A stretch of 64,000 nucleotides of DNA. Origin: an uncultured Dokdonia sp. (GTDB taxonomy: Bacteria; Bacteroidota; Bacteroidia; Flavobacteriales; Flavobacteriaceae). Below are positions 13,222 through 23,391 of this stretch, piece after piece (the stretch's first letter is position 1; every line of letters starts with the position of its first letter). The stretch is from NCBI RefSeq assembly GCF_947492815.1, contig NZ_CANLOB010000014.1, forward strand, positions 325-64,324, written 5' to 3'. Position numbers and translations under genes: made by a program. The notes beneath the pieces are model-generated. The model made no database searches. It was not told the DNA's origin and worked only from the letters and a program-made list of their open reading frames with translations.

Positions 13222-16035
13222 ATGAGAAAAATCTTAGTTTTTATATGTGTGATATGCTGTACTACTTTATTTTCTCAGACAGGAACTGTATCTGGTATAC
13301 TAGAAGAAGAAAATGGTCCACTTCCCGGTGTTACTATTCTTGTAAAAGGAACTCAAAACGGTACAGTGACCAATTTTGATGGCATCTACTCCATAGAATG
13401 TAGTGTAGGAGATATTCTTGTAATCAGTTATATAGGTTATAAAACTAGAGAAATCTTAGTCACTGAAAATATGTTCAGTGACGTATATGAAGAAGCCATA
13501 CTTCTTGTAAAATCTAAGCCTGTTCGTCTTATGCGACATGAAGATTATAAAGAGAATGTACGCTCCTTACCCAAGAAACTCATATTCAACCCAAAAGACC
13601 AAGACCCCATAAAGAAAAAACACTATGGATATGGCAAAGACCTTTATCGCATTGCTCAATTTAAAACTACTGATAAAGAGGTAAAAATATACCAGCAAAG
13701 ACCTCGGTTTTACAGCTATGAAATTGAATATATAGGAGGATCAGCACAACGATTTATTCAAGATAAGAATCTACCAAAGCTTCAACGTATTTTTGCACAA
13801 GGATCTAATGGTATTGACTGGGAAGGTCCAGAGACTGGCACTGTATTTTCATTTGGACCGCGCTTGTCTGAATTAGGTTTTGACAATAGCATTTATGATT
13901 ATGACACGAATGGTCGTCTCATCCCTTTAGGAGACGCAAACAATAACGCTATTCCTTACACAAACACCTTATTCCAGAATAGTCATAGAGATGAGCATTT
14001 TATCAGATTCTCTATAGATAACGAAAACTTCCGCTCTCTTAGTGGAAACTTTAAATATGCGACTATTAAAGACGTATTTGGAAGAGAGAATACTCAAAAT
14101 ATTCTTGCAGGAGCAAATTACTCAAGAAATGGTCAGCAATGGAATTTAGATTCTAGTATAAAATTCGGATCAACTGTTGATAATCAACCCAACATAAATG
14201 GTTTTCAGAACCTCTTACTATTCCAAAATTACATCACTCCATCTAGTTTTGATACCACACAAGGAATTGCATTAGCAGATGGAACACAACGCAGTTTTGC
14301 CCCAAACATATACAACAATCCACTTTGGTTATTAGATACGCACAGAAACAAATCCAGTACTTCAAGTTTATCTACAGCTGTTGCTATCAAAAGACCATTT
14401 ACAGGCGATTTACAACTTACATTAGGAGGTTCATTTACATACAATAACCACAAACAGCGTTTTGGTCTCCCTAATGCTACTGCTGGTTTTCTTGACGGAT
14501 ATGCTTCTCAAAAAACGATACACAACACAAAAGTAGAAGGCTTTGCAAAGTTTACTACAAATTTTATAATCTCAGAGATAGACATTATGAGTTTATCACG
14601 TTTTTCTATATCAAATGAGCAACTAGATTATGATTTTAATGAAGTTGTAGGGTTAAATACGCTTTCGCGAAAGCGTACTCCGCAACGCACTAATTATGAA
14701 CTTTTAAACAGTATTACTTTTGGCATTCCTATTTTTGATTATCAAGATCTTGATCTCACTTTAGGGAATACGAGTTATATCTCTACACTTCAAGAAGATG
14801 CATTATGGCAACCAAGCGTGAAGCTATTTGCCAATTTAAAACACGTATTAGATGAACTTTATATTCTTAATTTCATAAACTATTGGGGAGTCTCCACAGG
14901 ATATTCATTCTCTAATGCAAATAGCCCTTTACTCTATGGGAATACAAGTCATAACAGTTTAAACTTCTTACCTGAAAACACACTTACATACACTGCAAAT
15001 AATGATTTATTTACGGAAGGCTCTTTACAACTAGAAGATATTACTCGATTTGAAATAGGGAATGATTTCCGTTTTTTTAGAAATCATTTTTCACTGGACA
15101 CTAACTTTTTTGCAGAAACGCGAAGCAATGTTGTATTTCCTGTACTAGATGCTAATTATACACTTGCTAATGTAGCTACCGTAGAAAATAAAGGCATAGA
15201 AATTCATTTAGGTATTGATCACATACGTAAAGAAAAATTGCATTGGCACACTGGAATTACTTTTTCAAAAAACAGAACCAATGTCACAAAAATAAACTCA
15301 AATACTACCCGAGTGCCTATTAGTGGTTTTTCTAACATTCGACAGAACCTTATTGTGGGACAGCCTGCAGGGATTATTGTTGGGACTGCTTTTGAAAGAA
15401 ATACTAACAATCAAGTTGTTATTGACGATGCTGGATATCCAATAGTACAAACTGACTTACAAATAATTGGAGATCCCACACCCGATTTTCAAGTTGGACT
15501 TAGCAACCATTTTAAAATAGGAAAGCAATTACAAATAGCTTTTACAATAGACTGGAGACAAGGTGGAGACATTTGGAATGGCACACAGCAAGTACTTAAT
15601 TACTTTGGGAGATCTCAAGAGTCTGCACAACTAAGAAATACAGAAGGGTTTGTTTTTGAAGGCGTAAATACTTCCGGAACTATCAACACAACACCAGTTA
15701 ATTTTCTAAACCCAAATCAAGATGTACTTTCAAATAGGTGGACACGCTATGGTTTTTCTGGAGTAGGAGAATCTGGAATTGTAGATGGCACTTATATCAA
15801 TCTAAATGACATAACGATTTCTTATGATTTTATAAAACCCAAAAAGGGTTATGAATACAAGACATTCAAATCTATAAGACTTATCCTATATGGACATAAT
15901 CTACTTACCTATTCCAAGTATGATGGTGCTTCTCCATACACTTCTCTATTTGATGGACTCAGCGCACAAGCTCTCAACTTCTTCAATACTCCTTTGGTCT
16001 CTGAAATAGGTTTTAAAGTCAATTTAAAAATATAA
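13222..16035 (+). CDS. SusC/RagA-type outer-membrane beta-barrel apparently lacking the plug domain
   Basis: Signal peptide; carboxypeptidase-regulatory-like N-domain (GPLPGVTILVKGTQNGTVTNFDG); barrel motifs LPKLQRIFAQG, SFGP, GDPTPD, DWRQGGDIWNGT and C-terminal FFNTP...GFKVNLKI; no VVTG, IRG, VDG or GVIxITTK plug motifs. Confidence 0.8.
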   Translation: MRKILVFICVICCTTLFSQTGTVSGILEEENGPLPGVTILVKGTQNGTVTNFDGIYSIECSVGDILVISYIGYKTREILVTENMFSDVYEEAILLVKSKPVRLMRHEDYKENVRSLPKKLIFNPKDQDPIKKKHYGYGKDLYRIAQFKTTDKEVKIYQQRPRFYSYEIEYIGGSAQRFIQDKNLPKLQRIFAQGSNGIDWEGPETGTVFSFGPRLSELGFDNSIYDYDTNGRLIPLGDANNNAIPYTNTLFQNSHRDEHFIRFSIDNENFRSLSGNFKYATIKDVFGRENTQNILAGANYSRNGQQWNLDSSIKFGSTVDNQPNINGFQNLLLFQNYITPSSFDTTQGIALADGTQRSFAPNIYNNPLWLLDTHRNKSSTSSLSTAVAIKRPFTGDLQLTLGGSFTYNNHKQRFGLPNATAGFLDGYASQKTIHNTKVEGFAKFTTNFIISEIDIMSLSRFSISNEQLDYDFNEVVGLNTLSRKRTPQRTNYELLNSITFGIPIFDYQDLDLTLGNTSYISTLQEDALWQPSVKLFANLKHVLDELYILNFINYWGVSTGYSFSNANSPLLYGNTSHNSLNFLPENTLTYTANNDLFTEGSLQLEDITRFEIGNDFRFFRNHFSLDTNFFAETRSNVVFPVLDANYTLANVATVENKGIEIHLGIDHIRKEKLHWHTGITFSKNRTNVTKINSNTTRVPISGFSNIRQNLIVGQPAGIIVGTAFERNTNNQVVIDDAGYPIVQTDLQIIGDPTPDFQVGLSNHFKIGKQLQIAFTIDWRQGGDIWNGTQQVLNYFGRSQESAQLRNTEGFVFEGVNTSGTINTTPVNFLNPNQDVLSNRWTRYGFSGVGESGIVDGTYINLNDITISYDFIKPKKGYEYKTFKSIRLILYGHNLLTYSKYDGASPYTSLFDGLSAQALNFFNTPLVSEIGFKVNLKI

Positions 16036-16039
16036 CTCC

Positions 16040-19000
16040 ATGAAAAATCTATATATACTCATCCTTTTATTCTTTTGTTCGATGACTGTTACAGGACAGT
16101 TTTTTGAACCTATAGATCGTATAGAGAAAACATATTTACATACAGATCGTCCATTTTATTTTCCTGGAGAAACCATTTGGTTTAAAGGGTATATTACTAA
16201 TGCACATCAAGACATTACGCTTTTAAGTCAGGGAATTATTGTAGAACTCGTTTCTCCCAAAGGAGTTGTACTTAAAAAATCAAACCTATCTATAGAAGAT
16301 GGATATACCTATGGTGAATTTCTAATTGATGCATCTTGGGTAGGTGGCACATATACCATTAAAGCGTATACACAATGGTCTAAAAACTTTGGAGAAGAAG
16401 CACTTTTTACTAAAAATATTACAGTTCAAAAAATTATTCAACCTCGTTTACAATTAAAATTTGATTTTGAAAAAGAGGCCTATGGTCCTGGAAGTGTCGT
16501 GCATGCAAAACTCATTATAAAAGATTTAGAAAACAACGCACTTAAAAGCATCCCGTGTACATACACCCTTGCAATAGATGGAAGAATTGTTTCTAAAGAA
16601 ATTACGTCCACAACCCAAGAAGGTCTTCTTAACCTCAAGACTTCACTTCCTGAAGATTTATCGACTACAGATGTTATTGTACAGGCACAAATCCCTTTTG
16701 AAGGAAATATAGAATCTATTGCACGTAGCGTTCCTATTACACTAGACGCTATCGATTTACAATTTATGCCAGAAAGTGGTTATGCCTTAGAAGGCTATAA
16801 AAACACCATTGCCTTTAAAGCTTTAAACCCATACGGAAAGCCTGCAGACATAAGTGGTATTATCAAAAACTCAAAAGGAGAAGAAATAACTTCTTTTGAA
16901 AGCTTTCACAATGGTATGGGAAGTTTTGAACTTACTCCAAAATCAAATGAAACCTATACTGCTTTCATCACAAAACCTTTTACATCTACGATTGCATATC
17001 CTATACAGAAGATTCAGAAAGAAGGAACTACACTTCACTTAGCATCTTTAGAGAATAACATCGCAACTTTTACGATACATAGCACCTCAATTCAAGAATT
17101 ACAACTTGTCGCTTCTGATGTATTACAACAATGTTATGAAACCACAGTAAAAGTAAATTCCGAGGAAACAATTATTAAAGTTCCTGTAGATTCCATTGCT
17201 AGAGGAATTACAAAATTCTCATTGATAGCCTCTAATGATCAAATTGTTTCAGAACGACTTGTTTTTGTTAACTACGACAAAGCGTTAGATATTACAGTTC
17301 GTGTAGATAAAGAACACTATAACTTAAGAGATTCCGTAGTCGTTACAGTAAAAACAGCTGTACAAGACAAACCTGTTGCCGCAAATTTATCAATAGCTGT
17401 TGCTGACAATGCATTGCTCAGTTTTGCAGATGACAGACAAGATACTATTGAATCTTACTTTTTAGTATCATCAGAATTACAAGGATCTATATACAAGCCT
17501 AATTTTTACTTTGATGCTAAAGAAAAGAAGGCGAAAAAGGCTTTAGAATATCTACTTCTCACACATGGATGGCGATCTTATTTACAAACGATGCCTCCTG
17601 AAATCACAAAAGCAACCTTTGCTCCAGAAATACCCGCATTACGTAGGGTGTTTATAACAGATTCATTAAACAATCCAGTAAAAGCCAAACTACTTCTTAC
17701 TAAAAGGTATAGTGACGACGTTTGGACGCTTGAAACAAATGAAGAAGGCGTGGCTCAATTTCAATTAAACACAAACAACCCATATGGTAACTATACACTT
17801 ATTGCGTATACAGATGACAAAACCCCTCTTTTTATTCATGACTCAGCACCGATAAGCCGCACGCAAGAATCATTTGCCTACAGCCAAAATAACAATCGAT
17901 ATTTGGACACTAAAACAAGACAAATACTTCGTAATAAAAACAAGAACAACATCAATAAAAAAACAGCTAAAAAGAAGTTTGCTGTAAACGCAAATGCATC
18001 TACATCATTACTAGCATCTGAGAATGCCCTAAGTGAAGTAGTCGTTACTGGTTATGGTATAAAAAGAGAAAAAAAATCAGTAGGTTATGCTGTAAGTGAG
18101 GTAAATTCTGATGAGATAGAATTTCAAAGCGAAAGTAATTTAGCACGTTTACTTTCTAGAAAAGTATCTGGTATTGACATCACCTCGCAAAGCGGAGCCT
18201 CTGGAAGTGCTACCAATGTTGTTATAAGAGGTTACAATAGTGTTTCTGGAAGCAATCAAGCACTATTCATAGTAGATGGTGTTCCTTTTGATTATTCATC
18301 TATCGCATCTTCTCAAGTTAATGGAGGTCGTTTTTTAGATCTTGACCCAGAAAATATAGCTTCTGTCAATGTTTTAAAAGGGCTAGCAGCAGCCACACTA
18401 TATGGAACTGCAGGTAGAAATGGAGTGATTGTCATTACTACAAAGAATAAAACTCATCGTTACAGTATAAAAAAGAGATGGCGTAAAGATTACCCTGATG
18501 TTACCTATGCGATTAAAAACTTAAATACGTATAGAAATAAGGTATATCATAATACAAGCAAACGTTTCTACATGCCTATATATAATAATGCCGTCATTCC
18601 TGAGCAACGTGATGACTTTAGAAATACCATTTATTGGAACCCCGTAGTTCAAACGAATAATGAAGGCAAAGCTACATTTAAATTTTACACATCAGATGCT
18701 GTAACTTCTTTTAAAATAACAACTGAAGGCGTTAGCCACACAAGCGCATTGGGACGTTCGGAGACAGATATTAGCACAATAAAATTACTGAATCTAGACG
18801 TAAAGATTCCTCCATATCTATCAACAAGAGATACGGTTCAAATTCCAATTACTATTAGAAACAAACAAGACAAAGCTATTCAAGCAAAAGTCAACATTGA
18901 GCTTCCATCATCTATAACATTATTAGATTTCCCTTCTGAAGATCACATCACTATTCCTGCCAAAGGGTTTAAAGTAATCTACGCTTCTATTATCCCTACA

Positions 19001-20677
19001 GCAATAACAACATCTAGTCGTATTGTGATTACTGCTGACACCGAAAATTACAAAGATGCTATTAGTAAAGAAGTAGTTATCACATCTCCTTTCTTTCCTA
19101 ATGAAGCCAGTGTTTCTAGCTTAGAATCTGCTTCATACACATTAGATCTTAAAGATTATATCCCTTCTTCCGAAACTGGAAAAATCACTATATACACAGA
19201 TATTACAGCACAAGTATTTGATGGAATAGAAGGATTAATACGTAAACCATATGGTTGTTTTGAGCAAGCCTCAGCTACCATCTATCCCAATGTACTTGTC
19301 ATGCAATATTTTAAAGACATGGGTATTTCAAATCCAGAAGCAGAAAAAAAAGCCATGCAATATATACGCAAAGGTTATAGAAAGCTAAAAAGTTATGAAG
19401 TAAAAAGCGGAGGGTTTGATTGGTTTGGAGAAGCTCCCGCCGATGATGGTTTAACGGCTTATGGTATTCTTGAATTTACAGACATGAAAAAAATATATCC
19501 CGATGTAGATCAAAAACTCATTGATAGAACGACAACGTGGTTATTAAAACACAAAGACAATAAAGGAGGATTTCACGGCAATAATGGACACTCTGGTTTT
19601 TCAAAAGTTTCTAAAAATATTACAAACGCTTATATCATCTATGCGCTTGCTAATGCTGGACTTAACTATCAAATCTCTAAAGAATTTAATACAAGTGTAG
19701 AGGAGGCATTAACTTCTGAAGATACTTATAGAATGGCGCTTATGGTAAATGCTGCATTTGCAATGGGTAGAAAAAACGAGTCCTTGCAACTTATAGAAAA
19801 GCTAAAAGCAGTTATAAAGGATACTTCTTTTAAAGAACTCCCTATTGAACAAACAATAACGCACTCTTACGGCCGTGACAAAATAACAGAAACTGTTGCA
19901 CTTATTACAAGCGCTTTATTAAAAGAAGAAAAACCAGATAAGAAACTTATCTTCAAGTGTATTAATTACATTTCTAAACAACGTACCTATGGTCGTTTTG
20001 GATCTACACAAGCAACGGTATTATCATTAAAAGCATTGATTGCATTTGCAAAAACTCAAAAAGAAGCAACTAAAAATTCAGATCCGCTTATATATGTATC
20101 CTATAACGGCACTGAAACATCTTATAAAATTGATAAAAACACCACTGGTAAGATGGAAATTCCTATTGCCAGAGAAAATATGTCTCAAGGAAAACTAGCT
20201 ATTAACATACGCTACGATGATACAAAAATAGTACTTCCATACAGTATAGATACATACTGGGAAAGTAGTACTCCACAAGAAAAAGCGAAAGGATCATTAG
20301 AACTCATTACAGAAATCGTTTCTCAACCTATAAAAGTAGGTGACAACATCAGAATGAATGTTACTGTAGAAAACACAGACTCAAAACCTACTGGAATGGT
20401 TACTTCCATCATAGGAATACCTTCTGGAGCTACACCACAAATTTGGCAACTCAAGGAACTAGTAGAAAAGAAAGAAATTGATTTTTATGAGATTTCAGAA
20501 AATTTCCTTGTCATTTATTGGAGAACATTTAATCGCTTTGAGAAGAAAAAAATTGCGATAGACTTAAAAGCTGAAGTTGCGGGATCTTATACTGCACCTG
20601 CAAGCGCAGTATACCTTTATTATGGAGAAGAATACAAACACTGGCTCAAAGGAACACAAATTGAAATAGAAAAATAA
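16040..20677 (+). CDS. Alpha-2-macroglobulin-family thioester protein with internal TonB box and SusC plug domain
   Basis: MG2 start (YLHTDRPFYFPGETIWFK); plug at aa 664-802 (LSEVVVTGYG...VIRG...FIVDG...LKGLAAATLYGTAGRNGVIVITTK); A2M motif FRNTIYWNP; thioester PYGCFEQ at nt 19247-19267; C-terminal receptor-binding-like domain. Confidence 0.88.
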   Translation: MKNLYILILLFFCSMTVTGQFFEPIDRIEKTYLHTDRPFYFPGETIWFKGYITNAHQDITLLSQGIIVELVSPKGVVLKKSNLSIEDGYTYGEFLIDASWVGGTYTIKAYTQWSKNFGEEALFTKNITVQKIIQPRLQLKFDFEKEAYGPGSVVHAKLIIKDLENNALKSIPCTYTLAIDGRIVSKEITSTTQEGLLNLKTSLPEDLSTTDVIVQAQIPFEGNIESIARSVPITLDAIDLQFMPESGYALEGYKNTIAFKALNPYGKPADISGIIKNSKGEEITSFESFHNGMGSFELTPKSNETYTAFITKPFTSTIAYPIQKIQKEGTTLHLASLENNIATFTIHSTSIQELQLVASDVLQQCYETTVKVNSEETIIKVPVDSIARGITKFSLIASNDQIVSERLVFVNYDKALDITVRVDKEHYNLRDSVVVTVKTAVQDKPVAANLSIAVADNALLSFADDRQDTIESYFLVSSELQGSIYKPNFYFDAKEKKAKKALEYLLLTHGWRSYLQTMPPEITKATFAPEIPALRRVFITDSLNNPVKAKLLLTKRYSDDVWTLETNEEGVAQFQLNTNNPYGNYTLIAYTDDKTPLFIHDSAPISRTQESFAYSQNNNRYLDTKTRQILRNKNKNNINKKTAKKKFAVNANASTSLLASENALSEVVVTGYGIKREKKSVGYAVSEVNSDEIEFQSESNLARLLSRKVSGIDITSQSGASGSATNVVIRGYNSVSGSNQALFIVDGVPFDYSSIASSQVNGGRFLDLDPENIASVNVLKGLAAATLYGTAGRNGVIVITTKNKTHRYSIKKRWRKDYPDVTYAIKNLNTYRNKVYHNTSKRFYMPIYNNAVIPEQRDDFRNTIYWNPVVQTNNEGKATFKFYTSDAVTSFKITTEGVSHTSALGRSETDISTIKLLNLDVKIPPYLSTRDTVQIPITIRNKQDKAIQAKVNIELPSSITLLDFPSEDHITIPAKGFKVIYASIIPTAITTSSRIVITADTENYKDAISKEVVITSPFFPNEASVSSLESASYTLDLKDYIPSSETGKITIYTDITAQVFDGIEGLIRKPYGCFEQASATIYPNVLVMQYFKDMGISNPEAEKKAMQYIRKGYRKLKSYEVKSGGFDWFGEAPADDGLTAYGILEFTDMKKIYPDVDQKLIDRTTTWLLKHKDNKGGFHGNNGHSGFSKVSKNITNAYIIYALANAGLNYQISKEFNTSVEEALTSEDTYRMALMVNAAFAMGRKNESLQLIEKLKAVIKDTSFKELPIEQTITHSYGRDKITETVALITSALLKEEKPDKKLIFKCINYISKQRTYGRFGSTQATVLSLKALIAFAKTQKEATKNSDPLIYVSYNGTETSYKIDKNTTGKMEIPIARENMSQGKLAINIRYDDTKIVLPYSIDTYWESSTPQEKAKGSLELITEIVSQPIKVGDNIRMNVTVENTDSKPTGMVTSIIGIPSGATPQIWQLKELVEKKEIDFYEISENFLVIYWRTFNRFEKKKIAIDLKAEVAGSYTAPASAVYLYYGEEYKHWLKGTQIEIEK

Positions 20678-20928: not shown

Positions 20929-22143
20929 ATGAAAACACAATTATCTTTCATTATAGTATTCATAACCTTTATAGGTTATAGTCAAACATTTACAAATTAT
21001 ACAGTAGCAGATGGTGTTATTCCTGGTGTCATTTATGAAATCATTCAGGACACTGATGGGGACATTTGGTGTGTTGGTTGGACGGAACCCGATACGCCAG
21101 GTATTGGTAGATTTGATGGGACAGAATGGACTCAGTTCGGAACAGAAGACGGTCCGCACAGTAATACAATGGTCTCTTCCTTTCAGGATAGCAGTGGAAA
21201 TTATTGGTTTGGCTGTGTTCCTTTTTTTGGAGACGATGGTGTAAGCATGTTTGATGGGACAACTTGGATACAATTTTCTACGGCTGATGGATTAGCAGGT
21301 TCAAATGTAGAAGATATTATAGAGGATACAGATGGTAACATTTGGTTTGCCACAGGCGGTGGTGCCTCTATGTTTGATGGAACAACTTTTACAAATTACA
21401 CTATAGAAGATGGGTTATCATCTAATGCACTTACAGGTGTTATTCAGACTACTAATGGTGATTTTTGGTTTAGCACTGCAGACAGTGGTGCCATTCGATT
21501 TGATGGTACAACATTTACAAATATTACTGTAGAAGACGGACTTGCCTCTAATGAACTAAGCAGAGTTTTTCAGGATCAAAACGAAAATATCTGGTTCAGT
21601 TCGGGATTTAGCGATACAGGTTTGACACGGTTTGATGGTGACTCGTTTACCATATTCACTACCGTAGATGGACTCGCTTCAAATAACATACGAGAAATAG
21701 CTGAAGACAATGATGGAAATGTATGGTTTGGAGGAGGTTTTGGTGCATCACGTTTTGACGGTACAGACTGGTTGGTATTAGACCAAAGTGATGGACTCCT
21801 AAGTAGTGGCATAAGAGGCATAGAAGCTGATGATGAAGGCAATATATGGTTTGGAACTTTTGAAGGAGTAAGTGTTCTTAACGCAGGGTCTTTATCTACT
21901 GAAGAAGAAAACTTAACCTCATTTTCTATATTTCCTAACCCAGTTCAAGATCAGCTAACGATACAAGCTCCAGGTGCTTCAGCAGTCTTAAAAGTAAACC
22001 TATACAGCATATTAGGTGAACTTATTACATCGCAGGAAAACACAACAATTGTTGATATGTCAACACTTTCATCAGGAGTTTATTTTGCAGAAATCTTAGC
22101 GATCAATCAACAAGCGCAGACCATAAAAATCATTAAAAAGTAA
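20929..22143 (+). CDS. T9SS cargo: two-component-regulator-type beta-propeller plus type A C-terminal domain
   Basis: About seven repeats of FTxxDGLxSNxVxxIxEDxxGNIWF; CTD FPNPVQD...LSSGVYF...KIIKK; signal peptide. Confidence 0.85.
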   Translation: MKTQLSFIIVFITFIGYSQTFTNYTVADGVIPGVIYEIIQDTDGDIWCVGWTEPDTPGIGRFDGTEWTQFGTEDGPHSNTMVSSFQDSSGNYWFGCVPFFGDDGVSMFDGTTWIQFSTADGLAGSNVEDIIEDTDGNIWFATGGGASMFDGTTFTNYTIEDGLSSNALTGVIQTTNGDFWFSTADSGAIRFDGTTFTNITVEDGLASNELSRVFQDQNENIWFSSGFSDTGLTRFDGDSFTIFTTVDGLASNNIREIAEDNDGNVWFGGGFGASRFDGTDWLVLDQSDGLLSSGIRGIEADDEGNIWFGTFEGVSVLNAGSLSTEEENLTSFSIFPNPVQDQLTIQAPGASAVLKVNLYSILGELITSQENTTIVDMSTLSSGVYFAEILAINQQAQTIKIIKK

Positions 22144-22311: not shown

Positions 22312-23391
22312 CTATTTTTTTATAAAACGCTTAAATATATTTTTTTCATCCTTCATTACAAAATGAGCAATATACATTCCTTTAGCGAGGAAGCTCACAT
22401 CCAAGTACGTATGCATCGTATCTTCTATATACGTAGTAATAATGCGTCCGTTTACATCCAGAATATGCAGTTTTTCTAGGCCCTGCATTTGAAGTGTTAA
22501 AATATCTGCTACTGGATTAGGGGTAATAAGAATATCAGATAGCACCGAAGTATTTTTAACAGACAATACCTCTTCTGGAAAAAAGAAGATCGCTCCTTGA
22601 ACATTATCTGTAAAATATAATTTATTGTCATGCAGTGTGATATTCTCAATTTGATACACTTCTGGATCTAGTGTAATTGTTCTTGAAAATATCCATGGAG
22701 CTGACTGACTCGTATCAAAAATAGTAATGGAATTACTGTCTCTAAATAACACATATACTAAATTACCGTGTACTTCCAATTGATCTATAAATGCACCAAC
22801 ATCTATAAGTAGTTCTTTTGTAGTATTAAAAGAAGAGATTTCTGCTCTATGCAATCTAGTTCCCTCATCATAATATATAATATCATCTGCTACTGCAATA
22901 TTTTTTACATGGACACCACTATCGCCAAATATACTTCCATCTCCATAAGGGTCTATGTCGGTAAGTCTAAAAAATAAAGATCCAAAATCAGAAAAGGTAA
23001 AGAAGTATTCATCATTATATACTTTAAGATCATATAACTGCTGACTATTAAAATCCATAAACAAGCTAGCATCACTAATCTCGGCAGTATCAAATGGCGC
23101 TTTAAACCAATTAAAAACATCTCCAAAATACACGTAGGATTCGTCAGGGTTCCAAAAAAAGTATTTTATATCTCTCGGAATCTCTTCTATATTCACCAGT
23201 AATTGTGCTTCGGTTGGATTTAATAAAGCTACTTGTTTAAGGCCTTCTTGTTGTGCGATATAATACACATAATCATTTCTAATTTCTATCGGTCCTAAAT
23301 GATCACTTCCATCTTCATAAAACAATACTGGGGTTTGAGAGAACACGTGTACGGTGAGTAAGAAAATGAAAACAGAAAGTATATTTTTCAT
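22312..23391 (-). CDS. T9SS cargo protein, probable beta-propeller, with type A C-terminal domain
   Basis: Signal peptide; CTD ITPNPVAD...LAKGMY...KRFIKK. Confidence 0.75.
   Translation of the reverse strand: MKNILSVFIFLLTVHVFSQTPVLFYEDGSDHLGPIEIRNDYVYYIAQQEGLKQVALLNPTEAQLLVNIEEIPRDIKYFFWNPDESYVYFGDVFNWFKAPFDTAEISDASLFMDFNSQQLYDLKVYNDEYFFTFSDFGSLFFRLTDIDPYGDGSIFGDSGVHVKNIAVADDIIYYDEGTRLHRAEISSFNTTKELLIDVGAFIDQLEVHGNLVYVLFRDSNSITIFDTSQSAPWIFSRTITLDPEVYQIENITLHDNKLYFTDNVQGAIFFFPEEVLSVKNTSVLSDILITPNPVADILTLQMQGLEKLHILDVNGRIITTYIEDTMHTYLDVSFLAKGMYIAHFVMKDEKNIFKRFIKK

Follow-up and report, generated by a model that had tools for sequence, protein, structure and literature searches.

A thioester macroglobulin with a SusC-type plug at its bait position and an adjoining plug-less barrel in Dokdonia and other Bacteroidota

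Why should a protein built like a protease-trapping macroglobulin carry a TonB box and plug that belong to outer-membrane transporters, and why should the gene beside it encode a transporter of that kind without this very part? The question is raised by two neighbouring genes in a 64,000-nucleotide stretch of DNA (the window) from an uncultured Dokdonia sp. of the Flavobacteriaceae (contig NZ_CANLOB010000014.1 of assembly GCF_947492815.1, positions 325 to 64,324). The first gene (13222..16035) encodes P0002, a SusC/RagA-type outer-membrane barrel protein of 937 amino acids (aa) that is plug-less according to Pfam, NCBIfam, and its predicted structure. The second (16040..20677), whose ATG lies 4 nucleotides (nt) past the P0002 stop, encodes P0001, a macroglobulin-plug thioester protein of 1545 aa. 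Both genes, and all of their features given below, lie on the + strand. The two genes occur together across the Bacteroidota, and we propose that P0001 is a periplasmic thioester trap that would be tethered through its plug, in trans, to the P0002 barrel and coupled to TonB, in the service of envelope defence. We hold this proposal to be about evenly poised between right and wrong.

By its domain profiles, P0001 is a full-length member of the alpha-2-macroglobulin (A2M)/thioester-containing protein superfamily, with the thioester motif intact. Pfam recognises MG2 (aa 31-120), MG4 (aa 523-595), the A2M domain (MG6b/MG7; aa 863-952, 18626..18895, E 6.1e-12), and the thioester domain (TED; aa 1053-1335, 19196..20044, E 8.6e-26), along with a marginal A2M_recep match to the C-terminal receptor-binding domain (RBD)/MG8 (aa 1451-1530, 20390..20629) whose E of 0.0011 is just under the cut-off. 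Together with the structural model and Foldseek, these give the macroglobulin (MG) series, the CUB-nested TED, and the terminal RBD/MG8 of the superfamily, the N-terminal MG domains occupying aa 25-456 (16112..17407; Pfam MG2 and modelled beta-sandwiches). Among solved structures in the PDB, the best sequence match is the plug of the SusC protein BT2264 (E 5.4e-27), followed by CD109, human A2M, A2ML1, TEP1, and C3; the eukaryote-type members of the superfamily match at E 6e-24 to 1e-20, and ECAM of E. coli is a distant match (E 5.5e-5). The motif PYGCFEQ places the thioester Cys at position 1073, and GCFEQ (aa 1072-1076, 19253..19267) is invariant across an alignment of 115 P0001 relatives, 33-80% identical, from which all conservation counts given here are drawn; invariance at such divergence puts the thioester match far beyond chance. 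A preliminary description of this DNA had proposed just such a full-length macroglobulin, with an intact PYGCFEQ and a TonB module, and both elements are borne out, the latter by a TonB box and a Pfam Plug match at E 5e-17.

The position of this TonB module can be read against the known architecture of the superfamily, in which MG6 is interrupted by LNK and the bait region (in complement proteins, the ANA domain), followed by the alpha'NT segment; two of its residues, R732 and F735, thread a channel in the native state, and when bait continuity is lost, alpha'NT retracts, leading to the conformational change (PMC9352918). In P0001, a highly conserved LNK-like helical region (aa 457-530, 17408..17629), with invariant residues that include D465 and Q467 and with helices modelled at aa 457-508 (model positions 112-163), is followed by a CarboxypepD_reg-like beta-sandwich, identified with hhalign (aa 531-601, 17630..17842; modelled at 535-601), with which an inserted SusC N-terminal module begins. 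Next come a hypervariable, N/K-rich linker (linker 1; aa 602-660, 17843..18019), the TonB box LSEVVVTGYG (aa 664-673, 18029..18058), a SusC/RagA-type plug (aa 678-804, 18071..18451; Pfam Plug at 678-796), a basic linker (linker 2; aa 805-856, 18452..18607), and the alpha'NT motif RDDFRNTIYW (aa 857-866, 18608..18637). The TonB box and plug thus follow one another as they do in SusC, as a continuous stretch (aa 664-804) supplied by P0001. NCBIfam likewise matches aa 646-905 to its SusC/RagA model and aa 773-802 to the SusC signature, both under the full-length cut-offs, as expected of a fragment. The beta-sandwich at the head of the module aligns weakly (E 0.0079, hhalign) with the corresponding domain of P0002, and PF13620 is annotated in many P0001 homologues, directly before Plug in one of them (locus L063; L-numbers denote fetched loci).

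The assignment to the bait position depends on alpha'NT. In HMMER alignments, RDDFRNTIYW pairs with RQYFPETWLW of A2ML1 and YFPETWIW of A2M (the pattern 'R..F.ETW.W' of the human proteins), such that R857 and F860 of P0001 align with R732 and F735 of human A2M; F860 falls on position 709 of the A2M chain, which is F735 of the precursor, just as the thioester Cys at 946 of the chain is 972 of the precursor. A fragment of aa 800-960 searched alone against the PDB gave no match, and it was a longer fragment that gave the alpha'NT alignment. R857, F860, and W866 are invariant or nearly so in the family. Hence, with LNK-like helices directly before and alpha'NT directly after, the alignments place a whole SusC N-terminal module at the bait/ANA position of P0001, which is where the preliminary description had put its transporter module.

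That description had gone further, in that the bait itself was said to have become a plug, and here the position stands while simple replacement does not, given that two hypervariable and disordered linkers still flank the plug. When conservation is expressed as the mean majority-residue frequency of each segment, the TonB box is the highest of all in P0001 (0.76; L664 in 109, E666 in 110, and V667-669 in at least 96 of the 115 homologues), followed by alpha'NT (0.67), LNK (0.66), and TED (0.63), with the plug (0.48) equal to the MG core. The linkers lie far lower, at 0.22 for linker 1, which can be as short as 21 or as long as 79 aa, and 0.32 for linker 2 (over aa 805-842), and both are predicted to be disordered, with a low predicted local distance difference test score (pLDDT; 27-46 in linker 1). 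The bait position therefore holds a SusC module together with two segments that are hypervariable and disordered, as bait regions are, and it is more apt to speak of a plug set within a bait, the linkers being candidate cleavage sites, than of a plug that substitutes for it.

The partner, P0002, appears to be short of precisely the module that P0001 bears. At its N-terminus are a signal peptide and a CarboxypepD_reg-like (NTE) domain (aa 20-81, 13279..13464; PF13715 at 26-81, E 1.5e-13), the domain type that precedes the TonB box in SusC; from aa 144 to 937 (13651..16032) extends a beta-barrel, modelled as a long run of antiparallel strands at a pLDDT that mostly exceeds 90, whose end (aa 580-936) is what NCBIfam TIGR04056 matches. 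Between the two lies a disordered linker (aa 82-143, 13465..13650) at the site that in a canonical SusC is taken by TonB box and plug, unconserved among partner barrels and modelled with a pLDDT below 50 at 87-106 and 116-143. Pfam Plug is absent from P0002, and the motif [DE][VI][VI][VI] occurs nowhere in it, leaving it without a TonB box. The AlphaFold2 model (pLDDT 87, predicted TM-score 0.78) has BT2264 as its top Foldseek match (TM 0.69), followed by SusC, RagA, and other barrels of TonB-dependent transporters (TBDTs), such that BT2264 is the closest solved SusC for the P0001 plug and the P0002 barrel alike. Neither protein alone reaches the TIGR04056 cut-off (145 bits for P0001 and 177 for P0002, against 368), and by profiles and models, a barrel is found in P0002 only, none being present in P0001. 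In the canonical SusC of the same genome (locus L081, 1094 aa), whose NTE is 51% identical to that of P0002, the plug lies between NTE and barrel; on this comparison, P0002 is a SusC-type barrel without exactly the segment that P0001 carries. A divergent plug hidden in P0002 was considered and rejected, since Pfam finds none in 42 partner barrels, the segment is disordered in the model, and the TonB-box motif is missing.

Two further observations concern these components. First, the P0001 plug (18002-18478) is 68-72% identical to that of the canonical SusC in the same genome (G000:C3:113241-113753, the gene at L081:2737-6021 on the - strand, followed by a SusD gene), as close as it is to its nearest orthologues' plugs (72-76%), whereas the barrels, P0002 and that of the SusC, share only 29% identity. 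This suggests that the macroglobulin has exchanged its plug with an ordinary SusC or undergone gene conversion with it. Second, the most conserved stretch of P0002 (13771-13980, aa ~184-253; consensus LPxLQxxYAQGRxxNGxLxWxGPETxExFSWGP) is a long segment outside the barrel proper, modelled with confidence and set between long strands one and two, probably an extracellular loop, which could be a ligand-binding or gating element replacing the absent SusD lid.

The pairing of the two genes is well supported. Of 80 fetched loci with related macroglobulin genes, 70 have a homologue of P0002 directly upstream and in the same orientation, at a median gap of 4 nt and within 60 nt in 60 of the 70, and in one further locus (L041), it lies directly downstream; of the other nine, four are cut by a contig end and five are without a barrel. 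Pfam Plug (at E 0.01) was found in 0/42 partner barrels examined, 34 of which keep the NTE. In an even sample of 300 other Bacteroidota genomes, five have a full-length A2M-plug gene, all five with the barrel adjacent, and elsewhere in these genomes, the barrel type (at E 1e-40 or better) has a single match, a 1063-aa open reading frame (ORF) of canonical SusC size. The database holds at least 666 P0001 relatives, of which 120 listed share the order MG2-Plug-A2M-TED and come from the Flavobacteriaceae, Chitinophagaceae, Cytophagales, and Bacteroidales; where those listed are named, it is as 'TonB-dependent receptor plug domain-containing protein'. Counted with one genome per species, at least 567 Bacteroidota species carry the module, including cultured Flavobacterium, Chitinophaga, and Aquimarina strains. 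In the genome of the window, the module is single-copy, and no paralogues were found. Because a plug-less SusC barrel is adjacent to the P0001 gene and co-inherited with it, the two products would form a two-chain, transporter-like complex, rather than P0001 standing alone.

On which side of the outer membrane might such a complex hold its macroglobulin? The signal peptide of P0001 (aa 1-19, 16040..16096) had been called ambiguous between a signal peptidase I site at VTG-Q and an FFC lipobox, and the alignment favours the former: a type-I A|Q cleavage site is the consensus (A in 59 and Q in 61 of 115), whereas Cys13 is kept in 13 of the 115. Thus, the lipoprotein reading was dropped, and we take P0001, on this conservation, not to be a lipoprotein. 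Pfam also finds no Por_Secre_tail match in P0001, though there is one in the next gene, in agreement with the earlier observation that a type IX secretion system (T9SS) C-terminal domain is missing, and this rules P0001 out as T9SS cargo. With neither a lipobox nor a T9SS domain, P0001 is left without a known route to the Bacteroidota cell surface.

This bears directly on the possibility that P0002 translocates or anchors the macroglobulin outside the cell, where it would trap extracellular proteases, by a logic like that of two-partner secretion or inverse autotransporters or like that of the TBDT Oar in protein export. Precedent exists, in that a TBDT is known to be required for protease secretion (Oar/PopC, PMC6434023), and a barrel without a SusD lid would suit it. 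A TBDT plug, as P0001 carries one, has both of its ends in the periplasm, and the A2M fold requires that its N- and C-terminal halves share one side; further, conservation of the TonB box speaks for exposure in the periplasm, and P0001 has neither a lipoprotein export signal nor a T9SS C-terminal domain. We consider surface display or secretion very improbable. Because the TonB box works only in the periplasm, both ends of the plug lie there, and the A2M halves must stay together, a periplasmic P0001 is the simplest model.

The predicted fold suggests how such a protein might rest. The single-chain model of P0001 covers aa 346-1545 at a pLDDT of 77, with the MG, CUB, TED, and RBD parts at 80-96 (beta-sandwiches at aa 352-456, 82-94; an all-helical TED, 80-96; a confident beta-sandwich for MG8/RBD) and aa 604-845 at 27-64. 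The low confidence of the plug, modelled alone, fits with isolated plugs being unfolded without a barrel, as one paper reports in citing earlier work (Usher 2001, cited in PMC11658791). In Foldseek, the model matches the native states of A2ML1 (E 5e-41), CD109, A2M, A2Moo, TEP1, C5, and ECAM/SaA2M at TMq 0.43-0.47, against 0.20-0.29 for protease- or methylamine-activated forms, and is consistent with a P0001 that rests in the spring-loaded state. The active covalent trap that the preliminary description had envisaged is putative, this native-like predicted fold and the conservation of the motif being what speaks for it.

From these elements, we infer the following sequence of events. P0001 would be exported by Sec by means of its type-I signal peptide and stay in the periplasm, from where its plug would enter the empty P0002 barrel and shut it, leaving a trap of ~1400 residues hanging at the periplasmic mouth. 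That a plug can be supplied in trans is made feasible by work on FhuA, for which Braun et al. reportedly described in 2003, in J Bacteriol, that cork and barrel expressed separately reconstitute an active transporter in vivo. TonB would engage the complex through the TonB box. A break between LNK and alpha'NT, for which the cutting of a linker is the most plausible cause, would free alpha'NT, whereupon P0001 would collapse, and the Cys1073-Gln1076 thioester would bond covalently to the captured protein. The likely role would be to catch proteases or protein toxins as they arrive in the periplasm at, or by way of, the portal, and TonB could open this portal or itself be the mechanical trigger.

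The last option leads to a bolder version, in which the trigger is mechanical or topological, such that a pull by TonB, or an external attack that reaches the plug by way of the lid-less barrel, fires the trap. The seated plug would then itself be the bait, and the loss of the 'plug-in-channel' continuity of alpha'NT would fire the trap at an open portal. We regard this as possible but doubtful. If true, it would make P0001 a new class of envelope device and, with the variant described below, a member of a family of Ton-coupled macroglobulins.

A second architecture shows the same position put to a related use. Seven distinct proteins (P0122, P0123, and P0127-P0131), rarer than the plug form, have MG2, A2M, and TED, and in P0122 (L082:8001-13151), GCFEQ was confirmed. 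At the bait position, these proteins have a TonB C-terminal domain (TonB_C) in place of a plug, along with CarboxypepD_reg domains, a 'SEVVVT' remnant, and a spacer of poly-proline, after which the alpha'NT is the same 'FYAPKY...RSDFRSTVY'. The plug and TonB_C variants mean that, in this Bacteroidota clade, the bait position has been used at least twice to join a thioester trap to the Ton system, and by analogy, the TonB_C variant supports a periplasmic mode of action that docks on the Ton system or TBDTs.

Several points weigh against a plug-tethered trap. For a single-use trap of 1545 aa, coupling to an energised transporter brings no obvious economy, and the model leaves the part of TonB unexplained. 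The module is found in ~2% of the sampled genomes only and is hence dispensable. Plug-bearing A2M genes without an adjacent barrel exist (L025, L063, L065, L069, and L077; in L025, a prolyl oligopeptidase (S9) gene takes the place of the barrel, and an S9 peptidase is also near the TonB_C variant in L082), and natural plug-less SusC-like channels work alone (PMC12642598).

The last two points suit a different arrangement, in which P0002 is a passive plug-less channel, and P0001 uses its TonB box and plug separately, for example to bind TonB or to mislead, as a decoy, proteins aimed at TBDT plugs. In line with it, plug-less 'Type S' SusC-like transporters are functional (PMC12642598), some A2M-plug genes do without a barrel, and P0122, the TonB_C variant at locus L082, has no barrel neighbour. 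It would leave unexplained, however, why this barrel type is confined to A2M-plug neighbourhoods, why most loci show a gap of 4 nt, and why plug loss and plug gain complement each other exactly, and an open 22-strand pore with neither lid nor plug would make the outer membrane leaky. Separate action is, in our estimation, unlikely.

The gene neighbourhood speaks to another candidate role, that of a nutrient importer. No third gene family recurs around the pair, as judged by clustering of all ORFs and by a Pfam tally of the 117 nearest neighbours, in which the top family accounts for six and no SusD, penicillin-binding protein, or protease family recurs; a third conserved partner (SusD, pbpC, or a protease) was thereby discarded. 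If the pair instead imported proteins or peptides in the manner of RagA/BT2264, the periplasmic macroglobulin would receive or hold polypeptides drawn through the barrel when TonB remodels the plug, with no part in defence. Marine Flavobacteriia rely on protein as food, plug and barrel are both nearest BT2264 and RagA-type SusCs, RagAB is reported to import peptides, and selection within P0001 is strongest on the TonB box. Set against these are the lack of a conserved SusD-like lid or peptidase near the pair, the cost of an invariant single-use thioester in routine uptake, and a patchy, ~2% distribution that is more like that of an accessory or defence trait, and we judge protein or peptide import to be an improbable function. 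On the whole, we favour the tethered trap over these alternatives, because the two genes co-occur strictly, the plug lost from one protein is the complement of that gained by the other, the TonB box is conserved, and the thioester, usable once, is invariant.

Relative to known systems, P0001 combines features that are otherwise apart. With CD109, A2ML1, human A2M, and insect TEP1, its best matches in sequence and native-state fold, it has in common the MG ring, LNK/alpha'NT (including the R..F of alpha'NT), the CUB-nested TED with CxEQ, and the C-terminal RBD; it differs from them in the NTE-like domain, TonB box, and plug at the bait/ANA position and in being bacterial, Sec-exported, and encoded with an outer-membrane barrel. 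Closer in setting are ECAM/YfhM of E. coli and SaA2M of Salmonella, bacterial periplasmic thioester protease traps that are thought to guard the envelope and whose native forms have a similar fold (TMq 0.43). ECAM is an inner-membrane lipoprotein encoded with pbpC, whereas P0001 has a type-I signal peptide without a conserved lipobox, has no pbpC-like neighbour in the window, is distant in sequence, and would have its plug as a tether to the outer membrane; likewise, no transglycosylase or transpeptidase family, as pairing with PBP1c would entail, is found among the 25 most frequent neighbour families.

On the transporter side, the SusC/RagA TBDTs (RagA and BT2264, the latter of the BT2261-2264 complex) have their TonB box, plug, and signature matched in P0001 and their NTE and barrel in P0002, with the difference that the transporter is here split over two polypeptides, the plug lies inside a 1545-aa macroglobulin, and the pair has no SusD lid or polysaccharide utilization locus genes among its neighbours. 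The 'Type S' Bacteroides SusC-like channels are barrels without a plug domain, as P0002 is, but act alone on small sugars (PMC12642598), whereas P0002-type barrels are met only next to a gene that supplies a plug. In the full-text literature searched, we found neither a plug-bearing macroglobulin described, nor its plug-less partner, nor the TonB_C variant, and the family, built from two known kinds of protein, is known in databases under automatic names only. A2M/complement-type thioester traps and TonB-dependent transporters, both among the best-studied of protein machines, are thus joined in a way that neither field has described. Should the plug work in trans, the pair would represent a natural split TBDT, a bacterial A2M at the outer rather than the inner membrane, and a natural system for what TonB does to a plug, as well as a test of whether A2M proteins can be triggered without proteolysis via bait continuity, a question raised previously (PMC9352918). 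As the module is present in cultured strains, these ideas are directly testable.

Some 110 residues past the thioester Cys, members of the superfamily have a catalytic His (C3/CD109 type) or Asn (A2M type). The preliminary description had pointed to His1179 and His1184, in GGFHGNNGH, as residues that set hydroxyl versus amine reactivity. They are where it had placed them (HGNNGH, aa 1179-1184, 19574..19591, in the region of the reactivity-determining residue); as a determinant for the family, they fail, the columns being unconserved. Specifically, position 1179 is His in 19 of the 115 homologues, with Lys in the majority, and position 1184 is mostly Tyr (69, with Lys in 23 and His in 3). The column of the catalytic His of C3 and CD109 falls on H1184 by alignment to CD109, while alignments to A2M conflict, one giving N1181 and another H1184; the loop in P0001 is four residues shorter than in the reference proteins, which makes the assignment of the catalytic residue ambiguous. 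A family-level switch at His1179/His1184 was rejected on this non-conservation, and judging from the alignment, the family as such does not possess a hydroxyl-versus-amine switch. Elsewhere in the TED, aa 1135 (19442-19444) is His in 107 of the 115 homologues, within the motif TPPHE, and Asp in P0001 and its closest relatives.

The surroundings of the pair offer several minor observations. A scan of the region for sigma-70 promoters and terminators returned fewer matches than shuffled sequences did. Just downstream, at 20929-22143 (+), is a gene for a Reg_prop beta-propeller with a T9SS C-terminal sorting domain; L001, a locus from the nearest, Dokdonia-like clade, has a gene with the same two domains just downstream (L001:8174-9424), and the one in L002 (L002:10889-12097) is 78% identical to it. 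This gene is not seen beside the macroglobulin across the phylum. At 22312-23391 (-) follows a second protein with a T9SS C-terminal domain, of 359 aa and without any other recognisable domain. Finally, one contig bearing the module (L052) is labelled as a metagenome-assembled genome of Limnohabitans (Betaproteobacteria), with flanking genes as in the Flavobacterium loci L051, L056, and L058, and is probably a binning error rather than a transfer outside the Bacteroidota.

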